In this document: positions 2,677 through 37,170 of the stretch, piece by piece
Layout of the letters: each line of letters opens with the position of its first letter
Numbering within the stretch: position 1 is the first letter of the stretch
Sequence record: GU911519.1
DNA: 64,000 nucleotides
DNA from: Acinetobacter phage Acj61
Reading direction: 5' to 3' (one strand)
The notes under the pieces: generated by a model
The model's database searches: none
What the model saw: the letters and a program-made list of their open reading frames with translations, nothing else
Told to the model about the DNA's origin: nothing
Program-made: the position numbers and the translations under genes

Positions 2677-3915
2677 TTACTTCCAAAGATAAGAGTATTT
2701 ATCTTCAAGGTCATATGGAATCATCATATGACTTGCAAAGAATGCATTCATACCAGTGACTAGATTTTGATCTTCTCGGACACTCATACCACATGCCTTG
2801 TCGCCGATAATCCATGAACCAAGAATTGGGTAGTAGCCATCATGACTTGGAATGTCTACCCATTGCTGATACATGTAGCCCCAGTGATCATATTCTGGAA
2901 CCAAGTGAGAACCTTGAGCTAGTCGTTCAACATGATTTCCGTTCTCAAACGTTGATTGGAAAATGTTTGAACCTTCACGTCCATGGATGGCTTTCTTAGC
3001 CCATTTAGAATATGATGTCGGTTTATGGATATGAGATTCAAGAAGCAATGGATGATCTGGAAACATCTCCCAAAGCTTGACTAACATTGCCTTATTTGAC
3101 AATAACATTTTCCATGCAGGTTCCATCCAGCGTGTAGGAGCGTCGATGATATTTTTACCGAACTCTTCTTCAGTGATCCATTCCCATGGATACAATTTGA
3201 ACAAATCTCGAATTTCTTTATCTTCAAGATCAACAAATCGATTTTCAGGTGTAAGACCAATTTGTTCCATTTGGATTTCTTTAACAGTCATTCCTGAACG
3301 CAATGCGTTGTCCATGAGATAAACAAGATTGCCAAAGTCTTCATGACGGAATCCACCTGATGCAGCAAAGTGAATCAATGAACCTGGGCTGAATCGTTTC
3401 TGCCAAGTTTCAGTTAGTGTCTCATCAATAAGGTTATATTGAGTGCGAAGTTCTTGTGGCACAGGTTGTCCATTAGGAAGATTCTTGATTTGCTCTAAGT
3501 AATGCCATTGACCTACTGAACATTCAAGAATTGAAACTGGTGTGTCACCATTGTACTCTAACATTTTTAGAGAACCATCACGTTGTTGAACCAAATCGAA
3601 ACGACCGTATAATGAAGGCTCTTTAAGATGCCATGATTGTTCAATCAAAGGAATGTCACGTTCATTCAATTTGAAGTATTCAGGATAATCGCCTGATTTG
3701 ACCATTTGCGATACCATTTCGATACACATATTGTGAAGGTCTTGAGTTGCATCTTGAATTCGATCAACTTGCGTTTCAGAAAAAGCATACATAACACCTT
3801 CTTGCCAGTATGGTAAGTTGTCAGGGCCTGAAGGTGCGTTCCAATAATTCATGCCGATGCCTTCAAGCTGTTGGATGAAATCAGGACGTTTTTCAAAATT
3901 TGTATGACGTTTCAT
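2677..3915 (-). CDS. YgiC/YjfC-like glutathionylspermidine-synthase-family ATP-grasp ligase
   Basis: Motifs LFKLYPWE, WMEPAWKMLLSNKAMLVKLWEMFPDHPLL, REGSNI, ILGSWIIGDKACGMSVRED match E. coli YgiC/GspS synthetase domain; real ATG at 3915 (AAAGAG RBS); track start 3945 is the ATG inside TATAATG of the promoter. Confidence 0.75.
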   Translation of the reverse strand: MKRHTNFEKRPDFIQQLEGIGMNYWNAPSGPDNLPYWQEGVMYAFSETQVDRIQDATQDLHNMCIEMVSQMVKSGDYPEYFKLNERDIPLIEQSWHLKEPSLYGRFDLVQQRDGSLKMLEYNGDTPVSILECSVGQWHYLEQIKNLPNGQPVPQELRTQYNLIDETLTETWQKRFSPGSLIHFAASGGFRHEDFGNLVYLMDNALRSGMTVKEIQMEQIGLTPENRFVDLEDKEIRDLFKLYPWEWITEEEFGKNIIDAPTRWMEPAWKMLLSNKAMLVKLWEMFPDHPLLLESHIHKPTSYSKWAKKAIHGREGSNIFQSTFENGNHVERLAQGSHLVPEYDHWGYMYQQWVDIPSHDGYYPILGSWIIGDKACGMSVREDQNLVTGMNAFFASHMMIPYDLEDKYSYLWK

Positions 3916-3932
3916 ATTAACTCTTTGTTTTG

Positions 3933-3979
3933 TTGATAAGACCATTATACCACAAAGGCAGTTTGAAGTAAACTGCCTT
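3933..3979 (-). promoter_or_regulatory. early promoter cassette with -35 inside stem-loop
   Basis: ggcagttt-gaagt-aaactgcc hairpin (3957-3977) carries TTTACT; 17 nt; TATAAT at 3944-3949; hairpin doubles as terminator for upstream gene. Confidence 0.6.
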
Positions 3980-4600: not shown

Positions 4601-5149
4601 TTAACCACCAGATGAAACAGCTCCACCGAATCCACCACGAGATGCAGATGAAACACTTGATCGGCTTGAAGAACTCGAAGTTGCTGAGCTACGAGCGGCA
4701 GCTTGAGCACGAGATTCTGTTGAACGAGCTGAATTTAAGTTCGATGCACTTGGTCGAACATAAGCACTTGAACCGTATGAACGTTGGCGATCACGATACG
4801 AGTTATATGAACCATTTGACATCATGTTACCAAGCATCATACCCATTGCTCCAGCCATTAGCATATCCATGCCTGAGTAACCTGAACTTGCTGCTTGCTG
4901 AGATGCAGCTTGCGGATTCGTTTGATGCAATTCAAGAAGTTTTACCCAATCTTCATAAGAGCCAGTATAGCCATTAGCTTTGGCTTCTTCGTATGATTTA
5001 TTAAGTGTGTCGGCAACCTGAACGTATGCACCATCAGCAGTTTTTGCTACACCAGAATCTTGTGTTGCAACGCTGTCTTGGCTAGAACACCCAGCGAATA
5101 CAAAGGCAGGTACGATAAGCATTGCGATAGTTTTGTTTAAACGTTTCAT
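4601..5149 (-). CDS. lipoprotein with Ser-rich low-complexity C-terminus
   Basis: Signal + lipobox VFAGC; AAGGAAAAT RBS; followed by terminator hairpin 4576-4593. Confidence 0.6.
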   Translation of the reverse strand: MKRLNKTIAMLIVPAFVFAGCSSQDSVATQDSGVAKTADGAYVQVADTLNKSYEEAKANGYTGSYEDWVKLLELHQTNPQAASQQAASSGYSGMDMLMAGAMGMMLGNMMSNGSYNSYRDRQRSYGSSAYVRPSASNLNSARSTESRAQAAARSSATSSSSSRSSVSSASRGGFGGAVSSGG

Positions 5150-17485: not shown

Positions 17486-17935
17486 TTATTTCTCCATATA
17501 GCAAACGATGATTTTTACATCAGGTGTGACACGATTGATGATTTCCGAGACGTCATTCCAATTACCACCTGCAATACCGCATCCGATGTATGGAATGCCA
17601 ATGATTTTGCCAGCGTAATCTTTGTTAAGCTTTGTAAATAGAGTCTCAATGTTTTTCTCTAAATCTGCTTTAGGGAAGCGTCCAGGTCGAAATTGCGTGT
17701 AGCCATTAATGAGGTCACCAAATGCATAAGTTGCTTTAGTGTAGTCTCCCATTTTGCTCCAATCGCCAAATTCAGATTTCAAATCAGCTTGGTATGCTTC
17801 GTAAAAACGTTGGAAAATCTGACCAGCAAGTCCAGCTCCCATTGTGTGAAAACAGTTGCAGCCTTGAACAATTGCATCAAAGTCGCCATGCTCAAAAGCA
17901 TCCAAAATATTTACTTCTACGTATTGTGAAATCAT
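17486..17935 (-). CDS. macro-domain protein (ADP-ribose binding/processing)
   Basis: AIVQGCNCFHTMGAGLAGQI and GIPYIGCGIAGGNW match macro-domain N..N-x-G-G-GV-AG-I and GIyG motifs. Confidence 0.6.
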   Translation of the reverse strand: MISQYVEVNILDAFEHGDFDAIVQGCNCFHTMGAGLAGQIFQRFYEAYQADLKSEFGDWSKMGDYTKATYAFGDLINGYTQFRPGRFPKADLEKNIETLFTKLNKDYAGKIIGIPYIGCGIAGGNWNDVSEIINRVTPDVKIIVCYMEK

Positions 17936-28430: not shown

Positions 28431-28884
28431 TGCGTTTCTTCATAGTGGCAGGTCCTTTGTTTGTAACAGCACCTGTCGTTTCACCTGAAGCAATTGACTT
28501 AGCACTGCCAGAACCATCTCCTGCATCACCAGCAACCATTGATTCATATAATCTATCATCTAATTCTGTAGCGATTAAGGACCAATCACTTTCTGTGAGT
28601 CCAAATCGACTACCAATTGCAGAAAGTGAAGAAGAAATTGTGGCCATAGTTGTAGCGCCGGGCACAGTAGCCATCATGCGTTTCATTGCACGTATTGAAG
28701 CATGAAATGGAGTATAAGCACTCTTCTCTTCTTCAGTTTTAGGACGTTTTAGAACGTTTCCTTTGTTATCGATCACGCCAACACGAAATGCCTCCCAATC
28801 TTCAAACGACTTCTGCATAAGTCGGATGAAGCGGTAAGCATAAATTGAATCGGCAGTGGTTTTAGCTATTCCACCAATACTCAT
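28405..28884 (-). CDS. hypothetical protein
   Basis: 159-aa ORF, Ala/Gly/Ser-rich centre. Confidence 0.5.
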   Translation of the reverse strand: MSIGGIAKTTADSIYAYRFIRLMQKSFEDWEAFRVGVIDNKGNVLKRPKTEEEKSAYTPFHASIRAMKRMMATVPGATTMATISSSLSAIGSRFGLTESDWSLIATELDDRLYESMVAGDAGDGSGSAKSIASGETTGAVTNKGPATMKKRKLVNLNKL

Positions 28885-29156
28885 TTTACCTGTCCTATCA
28901 TTTGTTTGAGAAAGCGTTTATCGAACTTCGGATCACAATACATTTTTGAAGCAATGTACTCCAAATCCTTATGAGTTAATTCGCTTGTGTTGAGGCGAGG
29001 ATTCATGTTACGGATGTCTTGACGAATACGTTCGAAGTAAACAGCTTGTTGAAGAGGAGTACTCGGTTGAGCAGATTTAAAAGCAACACATTTATTCGAA
29101 TCTTCAGCCATAGCAGAAGTTGAGATCAAAGCTAATGCGATTAAAAACTTTTTCAT
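28881..29156 (-). CDS. small secreted protein
   Basis: MKKFLIALALISTSAMA signal peptide; GGAG RBS. Confidence 0.5.
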   Translation of the reverse strand: MKKFLIALALISTSAMAEDSNKCVAFKSAQPSTPLQQAVYFERIRQDIRNMNPRLNTSELTHKDLEYIASKMYCDPKFDKRFLKQMIGQVK

Positions 29157-29180
29157 TTGGTACTCCAATAAGTATTTATT

Positions 29181-29221
29181 TGATGGAGCCATTATATCAT
29201 AGCTCCATGCGAAAGTAAACT
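29181..29221 (-). promoter_or_regulatory. early promoter cassette, covarying palindrome
   Basis: atggagc|cattatatca|tagctccat; TTTACT (29214-19) - 17 - TATAAT (29191-96). Confidence 0.55.
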
Positions 29222-29888: not shown

Positions 29889-30212
29889 TCAACAAATTAA
29901 TTCAGCGAATGCCCAGTCTGCGTGATAAACTGAAGCACCTTGTGCATCATTCATACAAACTGTATCGACTGGATTCACTACACGAAAGAGAACAGGTTCT
30001 CCACCAATTGATTTAGCAGCTCGTCCTGCATAAATCTTTGCTAAACCGATGTCTTCGGTGAAGAAGATTCGATTTAAGTTTTTGTTACGTCCCTTTTCAG
30101 AGATTGTGTTTGAAATTTCAGGAGGTAACAGAAGATTCTCGATACCTGCTGCAGTGCATGACCCATGATAAAATACTTTAGGCTCTGTAGGGAAGAAGGT
30201 ATCGAGATTCAT
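29889..30212 (-). CDS. hypothetical protein with HGS...PPE motif (speculatively NAD-binding ART-like)
   Basis: VFYHGSCTAAGIENLLLPPE loosely resembles the PARP HGS-x-GIL-x-GL-IAPPE segment; too short for a full fold. Confidence 0.4.
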   Translation of the reverse strand: MNLDTFFPTEPKVFYHGSCTAAGIENLLLPPEISNTISEKGRNKNLNRIFFTEDIGLAKIYAGRAAKSIGGEPVLFRVVNPVDTVCMNDAQGASVYHADWAFAELIC

Positions 30213-31162: not shown

Positions 31163-31210
31163 TTGATAAGACCATTATACCACAAAAGGCAGTTTGATGT
31201 AAACTGCCTT
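31163..31210 (-). promoter_or_regulatory. early promoter cassette with -35 in stem-loop
   Basis: ggcagttt-gatgt-aaactgcc hairpin 31189-31209; -10 31174-79. Confidence 0.55.
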
Positions 31211-31227
31211 TTACGATTATTTAGAAC

Positions 31228-33012
31228 TTAGTTCCAGAGTTTTTCACGAATCTCATAGAGATCGACAAACTTGAGGAGTTCACCGTCTTTATATACTGTA
31301 GTGAGTAGACCACCTTTTTCCAGTTCACGAGAGACATTATCGATGAAGATGAGTTTACCATCTTTCTCAACAACTGTCATCAGGCCTTTAGCAGATTTCT
31401 TGCTCGAATCTGTTTTAGGGTCTTTGTAAATTGGCTTGTCAACTTGTTGCCCATTGATATCGACGATAGTATTAGTTGCTTTGATTGCCATGCCCAAGTG
31501 ATCTCGAGAAATCATGTTCAATGAGTATGACCCAACACCAAATACGATATTAGTTGATGCAAAACCTGCTTCTTCAAGACGAGTCAGAATTTCTTCTGAA
31601 CGTTGAACTGTGATGCCATCACCATAAATCATGCCGATGTGGCTGTCGAGTTCAATAAAGCCTTGAGTGTTTTCAGTTCCACCAAAGATCGCATGTAATG
31701 ATGCAATTGTACCTAATGCTTCTGCTTCAGAGATTTCAACTAAGAAGATTCCACCTTCGTCTCCGCAGATTTTGCTATAACGACCAGCAATTCGTACAAC
31801 TTCAAAGCCATCTTCTTTAGCTTTAGCAACTTTACGGTTAATAAGTTCTTGATATCCACGATCACCGGCTTCAATTAGCTCATCAGTAGATAACCCAATT
31901 GATGTAAAACGATATCCAGCAATTACATGGACTGGGTTACCAGAGTCACCTCGAACTACGAATTTACCATCACGAGCTTCAATTACATCTTTTAATCGAG
32001 GTAGAATTTTAGTGATGAAAGTCCAATAATCGTATGAGTCTGCAACATAAGACACAATGCCTGTTGGGAAGCGTTCAGTTAACAATTTCTTGGCATACAA
32101 GAATTCTGCTTCTTCGAGTGAAATAGGCTCATCCGGGGTGTTAACCTGAAGTGAAGTGTTCCATCGTTCTTGTTCTGTCAAAATACCAGAAGTGGTTACT
32201 GAGTGTTCACCTGCTGGGACTGAACCAGCTAATAAACGATGATCATTTTTAGCGTTGTAGAATGTTTTAGCAGCCCATAGTGAAGCTACATTATCGGTAC
32301 CACATGAGCTCAATAAGAATGCTGCACCATTGATTGCACATGATTCAAAACCAGATTGACCTCGTGACGAGAAGTCATGGTTCTGGAATTCTACACCTGC
32401 TGTAGAACCAGTAGTACGAATTGCATAATCATTTGAGATCAAACGATAAGTACGTGCAATTGTTGCAACAGTGAGTTGTTTCCACATGTCCATCGAGATG
32501 CCAGTTTCTAAGAAGTTTGGCAACCATTCGAAATCAGGATGTGTATTTCGAATTGTGAAAACTGGAGTTCCAATATCAACTAAAGTACCTTCATCAAGAG
32601 CTTTGATTTCAACTGGCAGGTAACCAAGATCATGTAATGCTTCAAATTGATCGAATTTTTCTTGTCCAATGTATGGACCTAAAACATCTTTCATTTCTTG
32701 AATTGCTTCAGCTTTAGGACGATCGAAGAATCCTTTCTTAGCCATTAGATGCAAACGAATAACCATCCATTGGATACCAAATACAACTACTTTGCCGTCG
32801 TAGTGTTTGCCAAGCATAGCACGTAAGTAATGGTCAAAGCGAGGTGTCAAGTTTGAGTAAATTTCACTAACGCCTTCAGTTTCAAACAAGATATGGCTCA
32901 ATTTATAAGAATCGGTCCAATATAAAAACGGGTTGATTGGAGCGATAAACTCTGCAGCATTTTCTAAAGCAATTTGAATGACGGTCTTTTGCGATTCGAT
33001 TGGTGCGTTCAT
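31228..33012 (-). CDS. NAMPT-family nicotinamide phosphoribosyltransferase homologue (candidate Namat of NARP1 / NadV)
   Basis: 594 aa, full-length NAMPT-like; AAGGAG RBS 7 nt before ATG 33012; 10 nt after Prs-like gene stop. Confidence 0.85.
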   Translation of the reverse strand: MNAPIESQKTVIQIALENAAEFIAPINPFLYWTDSYKLSHILFETEGVSEIYSNLTPRFDHYLRAMLGKHYDGKVVVFGIQWMVIRLHLMAKKGFFDRPKAEAIQEMKDVLGPYIGQEKFDQFEALHDLGYLPVEIKALDEGTLVDIGTPVFTIRNTHPDFEWLPNFLETGISMDMWKQLTVATIARTYRLISNDYAIRTTGSTAGVEFQNHDFSSRGQSGFESCAINGAAFLLSSCGTDNVASLWAAKTFYNAKNDHRLLAGSVPAGEHSVTTSGILTEQERWNTSLQVNTPDEPISLEEAEFLYAKKLLTERFPTGIVSYVADSYDYWTFITKILPRLKDVIEARDGKFVVRGDSGNPVHVIAGYRFTSIGLSTDELIEAGDRGYQELINRKVAKAKEDGFEVVRIAGRYSKICGDEGGIFLVEISEAEALGTIASLHAIFGGTENTQGFIELDSHIGMIYGDGITVQRSEEILTRLEEAGFASTNIVFGVGSYSLNMISRDHLGMAIKATNTIVDINGQQVDKPIYKDPKTDSSKKSAKGLMTVVEKDGKLIFIDNVSRELEKGGLLTTVYKDGELLKFVDLYEIREKLWN

Positions 33013-33022
33013 GTAGAACTCC

Positions 33023-33937
33023 TTATGCATTGATTAGGGTATTAACAATTACTTTTTCTTGCTCTTGAACAGTCAAGGCAAAATACGTGCTTCGTTTCAT
33101 GTAATGAGTATAGATTGTATCATACTCTACTAAAAGATTTTCGACTGCATAGTTTGAAAATATACCATGAGTAACGTATAGGTATAATTTTACACCATTT
33201 TTCGGCTTAAGTACACCGTTTTTTACATTTTCTTTAAAACATTTTGCAACTTCAATGAATGTTCGACCACCTTCACAGATGTCATCGACAACTAAGAATT
33301 CGTTGAACTTTTCAGGTTGTCCTACAATTTGTGAATCAAGCTTGAAGCCCGTGATTTTACCTGTAGCCAGATCGCGAGTCTTATCAAACCGAATGATTGC
33401 ATCAGGAATCTTTTTACGAGCACCATTATCAGGACAGATCAAACCAACATTTTCGAGTTCAACAGTGTTTTGACATAAAACTCGCTGATGAAGATTCAAA
33501 GAGCCTTTGACCAAATCTGTCATGACTTCACTATGGCAGTCACTAAAAACAACGGAATCGAATCCAATTGAGTTGACGAAATCTGCAAAGACTTTAGCTC
33601 CAAAGCCATCGATACCATCAAGCATCGGGCGATCATATCGAGTGTAAGGTGTCGATAAGATATTCAAGCAATACGAACGTGGTCGATTTACAGAGTTTTG
33701 CTCCAAGATATTTTTGATTTGTGCTACAATCATTAGGTCGTCCATCGATTCAACAAATGCATCAATACGTGCAGTTTGCCATTCAAAACCTTTTGTGATA
33801 GATGGAATCAGTACTCGTACTGACCCATCGTTAAAGGTGTTGATCTCGACGCCGACTTCTACAGTTTTAGCACCCATGTACGCTAGTTGCAGTGTATCAG
33901 GGATAAGGTTCACTGTGAATTTTTCGACGACTTTCAT
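33023..33937 (-). CDS. ribose-phosphate pyrophosphokinase (Prs) homologue (candidate Adps of NARP1)
   Basis: 304 aa; PRPP/ribose-phosphate binding loop FLVVDDICEGGRTF (cf. Prs DDIIDTGGT); AAGGAG RBS. Confidence 0.8.
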   Translation of the reverse strand: MKVVEKFTVNLIPDTLQLAYMGAKTVEVGVEINTFNDGSVRVLIPSITKGFEWQTARIDAFVESMDDLMIVAQIKNILEQNSVNRPRSYCLNILSTPYTRYDRPMLDGIDGFGAKVFADFVNSIGFDSVVFSDCHSEVMTDLVKGSLNLHQRVLCQNTVELENVGLICPDNGARKKIPDAIIRFDKTRDLATGKITGFKLDSQIVGQPEKFNEFLVVDDICEGGRTFIEVAKCFKENVKNGVLKPKNGVKLYLYVTHGIFSNYAVENLLVEYDTIYTHYMKRSTYFALTVQEQEKVIVNTLINA

Positions 33938-33947
33938 TTACTGCTCC

Positions 33948-34094
33948 TTAAAATTTAGTTAGTGCGTATTCGATTGCAAGGTACCATGAGATTGGCGGGA
34001 TAAAGATTGATCCGACCGTCCACCAAAAACCTTTTGCAACAACGATGCCAGTAATCCAAATTGCGAATGCGATTAAGCTTGCTAAGTAACGCAT
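33948..34094 (-). CDS. tiny membrane protein (48 aa)
   Basis: MRYLASLIAFAIWITGIVVAKGFWW...; AGGAGAAACAC RBS. Confidence 0.45.
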   Translation of the reverse strand: MRYLASLIAFAIWITGIVVAKGFWWTVGSIFIPPISWYLAIEYALTKF

Positions 34095-34110: not shown

Positions 34111-34476
34111 TTAATTGATTTCACCACAGTCACGTAGTGATTTTTCGACTCGAGCTAGATAACCTTCAGTGTATCCAGACCAGTTATTTGCTACAACTCC
34201 ACCATTAAGCTTGTGAGCTGATTCAAGGCAAGTTTTAGCTAATTCGTTAGTGTCGTTGTATACTACATCTCGATTAGTATTACCTGCTATACAAGAGCGA
34301 TAATCTTTTTTGATGTCATCGCGATAAGTCCAGTTGTTCTTAACCGCTTGACGAATTCCACCACCAAATGAACATTCTTTAGCTTCTGCGGCTTGTTCGC
34401 GTTCAAGTTGCTCAGCAGATTTGACACAGCCAGTTAAAGCAATTGCAATTAAAGATACACATAGTAAGGTTTTCAT
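34111..34476 (-). CDS. lipoprotein
   Basis: Signal + lipobox IALTGC; 4 additional Cys. Confidence 0.55.
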   Translation of the reverse strand: MKTLLCVSLIAIALTGCVKSAEQLEREQAAEAKECSFGGGIRQAVKNNWTYRDDIKKDYRSCIAGNTNRDVVYNDTNELAKTCLESAHKLNGGVVANNWSGYTEGYLARVEKSLRDCGEIN

Positions 34477-35459
34477 TTCATTTCACCATTTGGATTATAT
34501 GGAAGTATTATACCATCTTTCATGGCATTTGTAAACTTTGTAATGTAATCATCGTTGTAAAGATTTGTAACTACATCAAAGTTTTCCCAAGCGAATTCAC
34601 GGAACCAGCCTGAAGTAATCGACGTACAGACTTTCTCGAGAGCAATCATGAAACTTTCGTATGGACGAACCATAAACTCATTAGGAATCTGTGAACGTTC
34701 TAATGCAAGGACGTATGATTCTTCGAGGACTCCGAGTAATTGGACTGCCTTGCTTTGAGCAAAGAAACGATCTTTGTCGCAATGAACTTCTTGATTTTCA
34801 GTCATGTAGTATTCGTATGCTGGCTTGTCAAGAAGCTTTACTGCTCGATGAATCGAGTCATGGTCATAAATGTAATTGAAATTTGAATGGAAGAAATCTG
34901 ATTTGCCTACGTTGAGCTTTGGAGTCGCGTAATCGTATGTCTCCTTCATTCGTGCCTGATAGAACTGCTCGTCGATGATCTTTGCACCGATTTTACGCAT
35001 GTTCTTGATGTGTTTCATGGTCTTATGAAAATGAGGACTATTACGAAGATAACGATGACTCATCTTAAGCGTATAAAGCAAATCTAATGACGCATACATG
35101 TAGTTAGCGTAATTGATTGACTCTGGTAGTTTAGGAGCGAGTTGAACTTCATGTTCGAAGCCATGATATAACTGATAAGTCGTAGACTTCTTTGAAGTTG
35201 GAAAGGTGAGTTCCCACATTGATCCGTAATGATTCAAGACGATTGTACCAGTCTTGAATTTCTTAGATGTGGTAATCTTTTCGATTGCAAGAGATGAGTT
35301 GAATTGACGTAAGTAATCAATAAACTCGTATGCAGACTTTTGATTTGGCACGATGATATCGTGATCAAGAGGTTCGAGATTGTGATCGATATGCAGTTTG
35401 TCAAGATGACGAACTAATGCATGAGAACCAATAACGAGAGGTTGAAATGATAATTTCAT
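34473..35459 (-). CDS. hypothetical protein (328 aa; possible degenerate GS...DxD nucleotidyltransferase-like N-terminus)
   Basis: Long ORF; PLVIGSHAL...DHDIIV loosely reminiscent of pol-beta NTase fold; preceded by conserved leader/RBS repeat. Confidence 0.5.
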   Translation of the reverse strand: MKLSFQPLVIGSHALVRHLDKLHIDHNLEPLDHDIIVPNQKSAYEFIDYLRQFNSSLAIEKITTSKKFKTGTIVLNHYGSMWELTFPTSKKSTTYQLYHGFEHEVQLAPKLPESINYANYMYASLDLLYTLKMSHRYLRNSPHFHKTMKHIKNMRKIGAKIIDEQFYQARMKETYDYATPKLNVGKSDFFHSNFNYIYDHDSIHRAVKLLDKPAYEYYMTENQEVHCDKDRFFAQSKAVQLLGVLEESYVLALERSQIPNEFMVRPYESFMIALEKVCTSITSGWFREFAWENFDVVTNLYNDDYITKFTNAMKDGIILPYNPNGEMK

Positions 35460-36280: not shown

Positions 36281-36478
36281 TTAACAAGATTCACTAGAAG
36301 GATACCATTTTCCTTCTTCACCATCATAACGTCCACCCATACCGTAAGCAGGATAAATGTCGAATGACAAGTTATGCTTGTCTGCATGAGCTTCAGCTTC
36401 TGCAATAGCTTTGCTAATTGCGGTATCGAGTTCATCCATACGTTTACGTGGATTAGTTGCTGGTGCACCTTTACTCAT
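36281..36478 (-). CDS. small protein, ...WYPSSESC family, paralogue 1
   Basis: MSKGAPATNPRKRMDELDTAISKAIAEAEAH...GKWYPSSESC; GGAGACTATT RBS. Confidence 0.45.
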   Translation of the reverse strand: MSKGAPATNPRKRMDELDTAISKAIAEAEAHADKHNLSFDIYPAYGMGGRYDGEEGKWYPSSESC

Positions 36479-37067
36479 AATAGTCTCCAAATAATTTAAA
36501 GTCGCCTGATAGGCTTAAGTCCATAGTTGCGATACTGTGGGCGATATCTTCTTTAAGGGTTTGAAGCATTTCGAATGCCTCTTCCATCGTTTTCGCCTTG
36601 CCTAAGTTACAGACTGGAATCATGTAATCTTTTGCAAGACGTAGGGCTTGGCCTGTACCACCAGTCACAAGTCCATCTGGCGTCCAACATAGAATGAAAG
36701 CCACTGGTTCGATTAAATGTGGTCCCAAAATGATGTTACAATTTCGAGCATGCATTAAGCGAGCTGTTGGTGAGCAACGATTCCATGCGGGATGATATTT
36801 CTTTGCTAAGTCCATGACCTTTTTGCTTCGATCAAAAGGCATGATGTTATTGCGATATCCATTGTAGCCAGGGAAAGGAAGATAGTTCCGAAGAGAACCA
36901 TTACCTTGCATAGCTCCATCAATAAACGCAGAATCAGCACCTTTAGCTCCACCTGTTGAAACAGTGTGTCCTTGTTCAGCCATGTATGTTGCAAAGTTTC
37001 TCATACCTTTAAGTATGATGGTAGGAGTCTCGCGACTCCCTATTCCTGCATAATTTAAGACAGCCAT
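36471..37067 (-). CDS. DprA/Smf-like Rossmann-fold (SLOG-type) protein
   Basis: MAVLNYAGIGSRETP...STGGAKGADSAFIDGA matches DprA GSR..P / G-x-GiD motifs; AAGGAGA RBS; track start is TATAATG artefact. Confidence 0.55.
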   Translation of the reverse strand: MAVLNYAGIGSRETPTIILKGMRNFATYMAEQGHTVSTGGAKGADSAFIDGAMQGNGSLRNYLPFPGYNGYRNNIMPFDRSKKVMDLAKKYHPAWNRCSPTARLMHARNCNIILGPHLIEPVAFILCWTPDGLVTGGTGQALRLAKDYMIPVCNLGKAKTMEEAFEMLQTLKEDIAHSIATMDLSLSGDFKLFGDYYE

Positions 37068-37128
37068 TTTGGTCTCCTTCAATTCTTTTAAAACCTTCTT
37101 AGCTAATTTGAGCCATTTGGATGTTTGA

Positions 37129-37170
37129 TTTGATAGGACCATTATACAACAGTCCTATCATAAAGTAAAC
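37129..37170 (-). promoter_or_regulatory. early promoter cassette, perfect palindrome
   Basis: tgataggac|cattatacaac|agtcctatca; TTTACT (37164-69) - 17 - TATAAT (37141-46). Confidence 0.6.

Follow-up and report, generated by a model that had tools for sequence, protein, structure and literature searches.

In this study, we investigated a pair of adjacent genes in Acinetobacter phage Acj61, lying in a stretch of 64,000 nucleotides from sequence record GU911519.1 (one strand, 5' to 3'; this whole stretch is called the window, and all positions refer to it). We observed that the two genes most probably form a NARP1 module, consisting of an ADP-ribose pyrophosphate synthetase (Adps) and a nicotinamide ADP-ribose transferase (Namat), and we put the probability of this assignment at roughly 0.9. 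A sequence-only reading of the window, made without database searches, had proposed the same for a Prs-like gene beside a NAMPT-like gene, and the proposal is supported here by the clade of the proteins, their profile scores, their catalytic and contact residues and a prior listing in the literature. The placement by profile and phylogeny, which had been suggested as a check, was run in this study and set both proteins on the side of Adps and Namat, and not on that of Prs and NadV. The two genes are as follows:

33023..33937, minus strand: adps, homologue of ADP-ribose pyrophosphate synthetase (Prs-like), 304 amino acids (aa), open reading frame (ORF) with an ATG start
31228..33012, minus strand: namat, homologue of nicotinamide ADP-ribose transferase (NAMPT-like), 594 aa, ORF

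NARP1 is an important recent discovery, in which phages remake a metabolite that host immunity destroys. The discoverers of the pathway have already included the Acj61 pair in their catalogue of NARP1, so that as a system it is not new; the minor additions made here are the Met variant of the selectivity clamp, the coupled membrane ORF upstream of adps and the unlinked Macro-domain gene, each described below. In Osterman et al. 2024 (bioRxiv 10.1101/2024.02.11.579819), GU911519_00063 stands among the Adps homologues with the entry 'Namat within 10 genes: Yes', and GU911519_00062 is labelled 'Adps-associated' in Table S2. The Adps protein of the window is 100% identical to GU911519_00063 over its full length, and the first 399 aa of its Namat, which are all the residues printed there, are identical to those of GU911519_00062. 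These authors recognized NARP1 where a Prs-like gene of the Adps clade lies at most ten genes from a gene of the Namat clade; in Acj61 the two genes are adjacent, 10 nucleotides (nt) apart and on the same strand. The same gene pair is kept in Acj9, vB_AciJM_313 and Acibel004. As the public records of close relatives still name the two genes Prs and NadV, the value of the Acj61 case lies in a correct re-annotation.

Phylogenetic placement and catalytic core of Namat

The Namat tree was built by neighbour-joining from 18 sequences over 449 well-occupied columns, with 200 bootstrap replicates. The Adps-linked sequences comprised the tested Namats of Bas63 and SPbetaL1 together with those of Acj9, vB_AciJM_313, Acibel004, A511, ICP1, JG004 and Aeromonas phage 65, while the Nampt side comprised the tested KVP40 Nampt, five more phage Nampts and two cellular NadV proteins. 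On the latter side, the phage Nampts of YB07 and Magneto adjoin NMNAT-type genes, and the Ralstonia NadV adjoins a bifunctional NMNAT/Nudix gene. The tree divided the Adps-linked group from the Nampt group (KVP40, Nmnat-linked phage proteins and cellular NadV) with 100% bootstrap support, and the Acj61 protein fell in the Adps-linked group, inside a subclade of Acinetobacter phages that was itself supported at 100%. A position within canonical NadV, which the sequence-only reading had named as an outcome contrary to its proposal, was not what we found, the same 100% split setting the protein apart from NadV.

Acj61 Namat shared 38.8-42.5% identity with the tested Namats and 30.9% with the KVP40 Nampt. 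Its best match in the PDB was SPbetaL1 Namat (9w5w/9w5x) with 336 bits, compared with 179 bits for human NAMPT. All the residues that in the Namat structures bind nicotinamide and the nicotinamide mononucleotide (NMN) half of NAD+ are kept, namely D34, Y36, F214, R217, D240, H270 (in GEHS), R354 and D356, the equivalents of which in SPbetaL1 Namat are D13, Y15, F189, R192, D215, the catalytic His, R306 and D308. At the level of families, the NAMPT-like protein matched phrog_448 (4.5e-176), PF04095 (1.4e-29), NF006629 (419.7 bits) and also PF18127, and the Prs-like protein matched phrog_619 (E = 1.7e-65); the homology of both proteins is far above chance. NF006629 was considered as a discriminator between Namat and Nampt and was dropped, because its cut-off is exceeded by the tested Namats and by the KVP40 Nampt alike.

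In comparison with SPbetaL1 Namat, the Acj61 protein has about 100 extra residues, distributed over the N-terminal 20 aa, positions 277-297 and positions ~373-425. A novel inserted domain was rejected as an explanation, since the main insertion (~373-425) recurs in A511, in the tested Namat of Bas63 (593 aa) and, with fewer residues, in JG004. The smaller insertion (277-297) is found in JG004 as well, but shrinks to five residues in the Bas63 protein and is missing from A511.

Profile scores and conserved residues of Adps

No Pfam family was found for the Prs-like protein at E <= 0.01, Pribosyltran_N and Pribosyl_synth included, and on TIGR01251 it reached 45 bits, below the cut-off of 113, which places it outside Class I Prs. 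On the same model, E. coli Prs scored 422.7 bits and the tested Adps proteins of Bas63, SPbetaL1 and ICP1 scored 138.5, 106 and 98.3 bits, respectively. On an Adps profile made from 16 Namat-linked homologues, with the Acinetobacter-phage clade left out, the Acj61 protein obtained 178.3 bits against 134.5 bits for E. coli Prs. The sequence-only reading had taken the shortness of the Prs homologue as favouring NARP1; this argument fails, as 304 aa stand against 315 aa in E. coli Prs and length alone does not discriminate. The two segments on which the residue comparison rests are listed below:

33353..33385, minus strand: catalytic beta-hairpin motif DKTRDLATGKI with Lys186, from alignment to SPbetaL1 and ICP1 Adps
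33257..33292, minus strand: PP-loop segment VVDDICEGGRTF (D218, D219, C221-T226, F227), aligned to ICP1 D212/D213 and PP loop C215-S220

Lys186 aligns with K162 of SPbetaL1 Adps and K185 of ICP1 Adps, the mutants of which were both inactive (ICP1: PMC13586617). The hairpin around it has the Adps-type pattern K-x-R-[DN]-x-x-T-G-x-I, where Prs has KRRPRAN. Structures of ICP1 Adps showed that the ADP-ribose (ADPR) acceptor is contacted by F18, R87, F92, H121, D161, D212 and D213 (PMC13586617), and the contacts kept in Acj61 Adps are F35, R100, H135, D170, D218 and D219. The binding-loop motif pointed out earlier in the Prs homologue was located at residues 216-227 (window 33292-33257). Its PP loop and the following Phe read CEGGRTF (C221-T226, F227), in comparison with DDICDGGRTF for the segment in Bas63 and DDMIDTGGTL in E. 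coli Prs. The C-terminal tail, in the region of the regulatory or filament module alpha11-alpha12 of PRPS, which Adps proteins are expected to lack, is about 15 residues shorter than that of E. coli Prs and could not be aligned with it in the sequence alignment.

Start sites and gene junction

The ORFs confirmed that a Prs-like gene of 304 aa lies directly upstream of a NAMPT-like gene of 594 aa, both on the minus strand, as had been described from the sequence. The namat reading frame as listed runs over 31228..33030 and encodes 600 aa, and an internal ATG at 33012 gives the 594-aa protein (MNAPIESQ...). The start at 33012 is the true one, because no Shine-Dalgarno sequence precedes the ATG at 33030, which also falls within adps; GU911519_00062 uses the same 594-aa start. 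The junction is the following:

33013..33025, minus strand: adps-namat junction, TAAGGAG-N6-ATG, in which the TAA overlaps the Shine-Dalgarno sequence, read from the sequence

The adps stop codon TAA occupies 33025-33023 and the namat ATG 33012-33010, with the 10 bases GGAGTTCTAC between them, and the Shine-Dalgarno AAGGAG of namat overlaps the adps stop codon (TAAGGAG). The gap of 10 nt from stop to ATG with its AAGGAG had been noticed before, and the bases are as described. The adps and namat genes are translationally coupled.

Proposed pathway

From the homology to Bas63, SPbetaL1, FADO and ICP1, we infer both chemical reactions and the anti-defence role for Acj61; ADPR-PP synthesis, NAD+ formation and protection from defence have been demonstrated for homologues only. 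A host defence of the SIR2, TIR or SEFIR type would split NAD+ into ADP-ribose and nicotinamide. Adps would then move the beta,gamma-pyrophosphate of ATP onto the terminal ribose of ADP-ribose to give ADPR-PP, and Namat would exchange the pyrophosphate of ADPR-PP for nicotinamide, which would yield NAD+ directly, bypassing both NMN and an NMNAT. Such rebuilding of NAD+ would neutralise defences that cleave NAD+ to ADPR and nicotinamide. For forecasts of which therapeutic Acinetobacter phages can evade Thoeris, DSR or SIR2-type defences, the Acj61 case is of modest importance.

Comparison with known systems

The NARP1 of Bas63 (JohannRWettstein), formed by genes 79-80, was tested in vivo (Osterman et al. 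2024). It resembles the Acj61 pair in the order of adps and then namat, in the size of Namat (593 and 594 aa), in insertions at the same sites relative to SPbetaL1, in the PP loop DDIC[D/E]GGRTF, in the Met at the position of ICP1 F92 and in an aromatic, putatively stacking residue at the fourth place of the selectivity-clamp loop (K-W in Bas63, H-Y in Acj61). It differs in that the identity is 32.5% for Adps and 38.8% for Namat, in that position 7 of the selectivity-clamp helix is Tyr in Bas63 and Met in Acj61, and in an intergenic gap of 45 nt, whereas that of Acj61 is 10 nt with an overlapping Shine-Dalgarno sequence. SPbetaL1 NARP1, known from biochemistry and the crystals 9w5w/9w5x, shares with Acj61 the residues of the nicotinamide/NMN site and the GS-aromatic start of the clamp helix, and the SPbetaL1 and ICP1 Adps proteins (PMC13586617) share its catalytic Lys and acceptor residues. 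The Acj61 Namat is, however, ~100 residues longer than that of SPbetaL1 and carries Met500 and His61 at the sites of SPbetaL1 Y396 and R40, and the PP loops read CEGGRT in Acj61, CDGAAS in ICP1 and SSFGGT in SPbetaL1.

KVP40 NARP2 (NadV/Nampt and NatV/Nmnat) is alike in the Nampt fold family, in keeping NAD+ up during infection and in being carried by a T4-like phage. Unlike the Acj61 protein, KVP40-type Nampts form a separate clade (100% bootstrap), have a GGGLLQ clamp helix and a short clamp loop, have no Prs-like gene beside them and depend on an NMNAT. The cellular proteins, E. coli Prs and the NadV of Ralstonia and Arthrobacter, have the PRPS and type II phosphoribosyltransferase folds and the core catalytic residues in common with the Acj61 pair. 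Nevertheless, E. coli Prs is only 22.7% identical to the Acj61 Prs-like protein, which falls below the threshold of the Prs model, and cellular NadV groups with the Nmnat-linked clade, that of Ralstonia standing beside its NMNAT/Nudix gene.

Selectivity clamp and points against the assignment

The selectivity clamp is the published discriminator between Namat and Nampt (PMC12774641), and its two parts were found in Acj61 Namat as listed:

31501..31533, minus strand: motif of the selectivity-clamp helix (SCH), GSYSLNMISRD, aa 494-504, from alignment
32788..32838, minus strand: equivalent of the selectivity-clamp loop (SCL), FDHYLRAMLGKHYDGKV, aa 59-75, 17 aa, from alignment and the rule in PMC12774641

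The start of the SCH is of the Namat type, being G494-S495-Y496 with Y496 equivalent to SPbetaL1 F392, whereas GG[GA] stands at the start of the helix (GG[GA]LLQ) in all eight sequences of the Nampt group. The SCL exceeds the Nampt loops by 7-10 residues. The published rule for the loop demands Arg as the third residue, or Lys/Tyr with a stacking fourth residue (PMC12774641). The Acj61 loop begins F-D-H61-Y62, with an aromatic residue in fourth place, which is also the case in Bas63 (K-W) and Acj9 (K-Y); since Nampts also read G-G-K-F, this feature is weakly discriminating.

Several observations weigh against the NARP1 assignment. In the clamp of Namat, position 7 of the SCH, the second of the sites that stack on adenine, is Met500, where SPbetaL1 has Y396 and an aromatic residue is expected, the closing TRD of the helix is SRD (S502-R-D), and the third residue of the SCL is His61, which is none of Arg, Lys or Tyr. 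In Adps, the adenine-contacting F92 of ICP1 is replaced by M105, a Met that the tested Bas63 Adps has too, and Asp216 of the PP loop (ICP1 numbering) is Glu, a conservative replacement and the sole change from the Bas63 loop. The Adps tree had E. coli Prs as its sole outgroup and gives a placement among Adps homologues, not monophyly. The search for an NMNAT, described below, covered the 64 kb of the window, out of an Acj61 genome that we take to be ~160-170 kb. The enzymes of the Acinetobacter-phage clade are known from their sequences. Again, Namats keep some synthesis of NMN in vitro that depends on phosphoribosyl pyrophosphate (PRPP), and by analogy Acj61 Namat may have a minor classical NMN-making activity. 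The residual doubt about NARP1 comes from this sequence-level knowledge of the Acinetobacter-phage enzymes and from the clamp variant.

With regard to this variant, Met occupies SCH position 7 in all four of the Acinetobacter-phage sequences compared, and JG004, Aeromonas phage 65 and A511, which are also Adps-linked, have Cys, Lys and Phe there, respectively. The rule of an aromatic residue at position 7 is not universal among Adps-linked homologues, because the Acinetobacter phages have Met, JG004 Cys and Aeromonas phage 65 Lys; its authors themselves gave the aromatic residue as 'most often' present and not as universal, and reported that single clamp mutants of SPbetaL1 Namat lose 1.3-1.7-fold activity (PMC12774641). 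Because the rule holds only 'most often', other homologues deviate from it and single mutations cost so little, we read Met500 as a probable clade-specific variant of the clamp and not as a ground for exclusion from Namat. The Acj61 case points to Acinetobacter T4-like phages as candidate carriers of this Met variant.

Search for an NMNAT and alternative explanations

The sequence-only reading had seen no NMNAT in the window, and this stood when Pfam was run on 50 ORFs and NMNAT-Nudix queries were run in six frames, all with negative results. The Pfam search covered the ten neighbouring ORFs and 40 of the 48 minus-strand ORFs of at least 140 aa (six of at least 489 aa were omitted as too long for an NMNAT), and no CTP_transf_like, NUDIX or NadR-type match was found in these 50 ORFs of the window. 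The NMNAT-Nudix sequences of YB07, Magneto and Ralstonia, used singly against the six frames of the window, gave nothing below E = 0.5. A four-sequence NMNAT profile, diluted by the phiAS5 'nucleotidyltransferase', also found nothing in the six frames; the phiAS5 protein was discarded as an NMNAT query, its N-terminal sequence not being that of an NMNAT. The pair does not belong to NARP2, which joins a KVP40-type Nampt to an NMNAT, as the clade is the wrong one and no NMNAT was detected in the 64-kb window. For the genome outside the window, we rely on the 'Adps-associated' label and on the mutual exclusivity of NARP1 and NARP2 in Osterman et al. 2024, where Namats were annotated by an Adps or Nmnat anywhere in the genome and no phage had both systems.

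A classical salvage booster would have the Prs-like protein making PRPP from ribose-5-phosphate, the NAMPT-like protein making NMN, and the host NadR, NadM or NadD finishing NAD+, in the manner of NARP2 but without a phage NMNAT. The annotation of relatives as Prs and NadV agrees with this, as do the passing of NF006629 (419.7 bits against a cut-off of 405), the ability of Namats to make NMN from PRPP in vitro and the one non-aromatic clamp position (Met500). NF006629, however, is passed by the tested Namats as well and does not discriminate, the Prs-like protein stays below the Prs model (45 against 113 bits) and groups with Namat-linked homologues, and the NAMPT-like protein is split from all Nmnat-linked and cellular Nampts with 100% bootstrap support. 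Moreover, SPbetaL1 Adps gives no PRPP-type product, and Bas63 NARP1 works in a host without pncC and nadR. We therefore regard the salvage booster as very improbable. It is harder still to believe that the Prs-like protein, being the family member that has moved furthest from Prs, has decayed or does no catalysis, and that only the NAMPT-like enzyme is active. Its 45 bits on TIGR01251, compared with 98-138 for the tested Adps proteins, could be seen in that way, and so could the 44.6% identity between the Prs-like proteins of Acj61 and Acj9 beside 78.7% for their Namats; but the catalytic and acceptor residues K186, H135, D170, D218, D219, R100 and F35 are all intact, the ORF is of full length and translationally coupled, and the gene is kept in four Acinetobacter phages.

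A different alternative retains NARP1 and extends it by a gene elsewhere in the window:

17486..17935, minus strand: Macro-domain protein of the Adpp (ADPR-1''-phosphate phosphatase) family, 149 aa, unlinked; PF01661 22.1 bits, phrog_335 'phosphatase' 7e-49

According to this alternative, Acj61 would have a dispersed pathway of the NARP1-AP type, in which the core pair and the Macro phosphatase homologue (17486-17935) also recycle ADPR-1''-phosphate from RES-type defences. The 149-aa protein is a clear Adpp-family homologue, scoring 115 bits with the Macro protein of the phiAbaA1 NARP1 operon and 47.8 bits with the Adpp tested from Vibrio phage Gary; the published NARP1-AP screen covered two genes either way of NARP1, so that the gene would have been missed, and Acj61 is not in the table of that paper. 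On the other hand, the Macro gene lies 13.3 kb from the NARP1 pair, probably in a separate transcription unit, and its family, with Macro homologues in 2546 phage records and Adps homologues in 1317, is more widespread than NARP1 and may serve other ADP-ribose chemistry. We consider the dispersed pathway doubtful, though it deserves more credit than the salvage booster, and slightly more doubtful the combined proposal that it operates through the Macro protein while, in parallel, the Met clamp alters the donor selectivity between ADPR-PP and PRPP. If true, either screens that rely on operon proximity miss some of the extended NARP1 systems, or the clamp rule is less strict than in its published form.

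The Macro gene is a possible accessory to the NARP1 module of Acj61; that it is specific to NARP1 was rejected, as the phage records with a member of its family are about double those with Adps. In the NARP1-AP of Vibrio phage Gary (Adps-Adpp-Namat), which has the same core pair and likewise an Adpp-family Macro protein, the Macro gene is inside the operon, unlike the distant copy of Acj61. No Macro match was obtained in the ten ORFs around the Acj61 pair, and with no Adpp within two genes the pair falls outside NARP1-AP as published; a Macro- or RyR-domain accessory gene, as in NARP1-AP or RyDEP, was absent from the operon in the scan of these ten ORFs. In Acibel004, a Macro gene annotated 'Appr-1-p processing' (L010, 955-1503) lies three genes upstream of adps, just beyond the two-gene radius of NARP1-AP, and its protein is 26% identical to the Macro protein of the Acj61 window.

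Probable operon structure

The sequences flanking the pair hold the following candidate elements:

33948..34094, minus strand: two-helix membrane ORF, 48 aa, phrog_16613 (2.9e-25)
34507..34535, minus strand: sigma-70-like promoter candidate TTTACA-17-TATAAT with TG, 11/12 matches, the nearest strong one upstream
31184..31212, strand not assigned: 13-bp palindromic hairpin, 16 nt past the namat stop, called by the scanner on the plus strand, with the coding-strand 3' arm ending in UUUU

The stop codon of the 48-aa ORF (33950-33948) and the adps ATG at 33937 form a second TAAGGAG-N6-ATG junction, with the ATG following 10 bases after the stop. The membrane ORF is probably the first gene of the NARP1 operon, and adps, namat and this small ORF would probably be one early transcription unit. 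A 51-aa ORF occupies the equivalent place upstream of adps in Acj9. The hairpin is a likely transcription stop and overlaps the next promoter-like site (31203-31174). The transcription map of the NARP1 unit is, however, tentative, because promoter-like sites in the region are no more frequent than in shuffled sequence. A lipoprotein-like ORF of 121 aa (34111-34476, minus strand; phrog_6360) precedes the 48-aa ORF.

Relatives and neighbouring genes

A megablast of the region against the phage collection gave Acj9 as the sole match, with 79.7% nucleotide identity and over namat only (window 31377-32940). At the protein level, Acj61 Adps is 50.3% identical to that of vB_AciJM_313 and 44.6% identical to that of Acj9, while the Namats of Acj61 and Acj9 are 78.7% identical. 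This suggests either that recombination has occurred with a breakpoint close to the 5' end of namat or that Adps has evolved much faster.

The surrounding genes are T4-like and include a dda-type helicase, RNA ligase 2, a gp41-type helicase, gp43 fragments, gp44/62/45 and endonuclease VII. Between 39027 and 46573 on the minus strand, we observed a 552-aa NTP_transferase fusion, a SIS-domain protein, a thymidylate-synthase-like (dCMP hydroxymethylase-type) protein and two ORFs of ~375 aa without Pfam matches. By its gene content, this set matches the RB69-type hydroxymethylcytosine arabinosylation cluster that was reported earlier for Acj61 (PMC6024577).

About 2.5 kb upstream of the NARP1 pair, there is a DprA-like/SLOG-type gene (phrog_768; 36471-37142, minus strand). 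DprA-like genes are also found a few genes from the Nampt gene in Klebsiella phage Matisse (L005, 1179-1655) and Stenotrophomonas phage YB07 (L015, 5310-5813), and this closeness to Nampt-family genes may reflect either shared synteny or a link in function. A 328-aa protein with DUF7277 and DUF7275 (235.6 bits; phrog_2141) is encoded at 34473-35459 on the minus strand, and its counterpart Acj9p074 agrees with it in position and length. About 1 kb downstream of namat, a 107-aa ORF (phrog_2110; 29889-30212, minus strand) matched ART-PolyVal with E = 0.07, which is too weak to interpret. A secreted protein of 103 aa (28881-29192, minus strand) resembles T4 Spackle at a score below the threshold (E = 2.3e-4; 22.1 bits, cut-off 27) and is a possible superinfection-exclusion protein. 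The minus-strand gene at 2677-3945 codes for an ATP-grasp protein similar to glutathionylspermidine synthase (GSP_synth, 378 bits) and lies near the gene of a DUF1190 protein (4601-5149, minus strand); the pairing of GSP_synth and DUF1190 resembles bacterial operons of the ygiC/yjfC type and is an unusual cargo for a T4-like phage.

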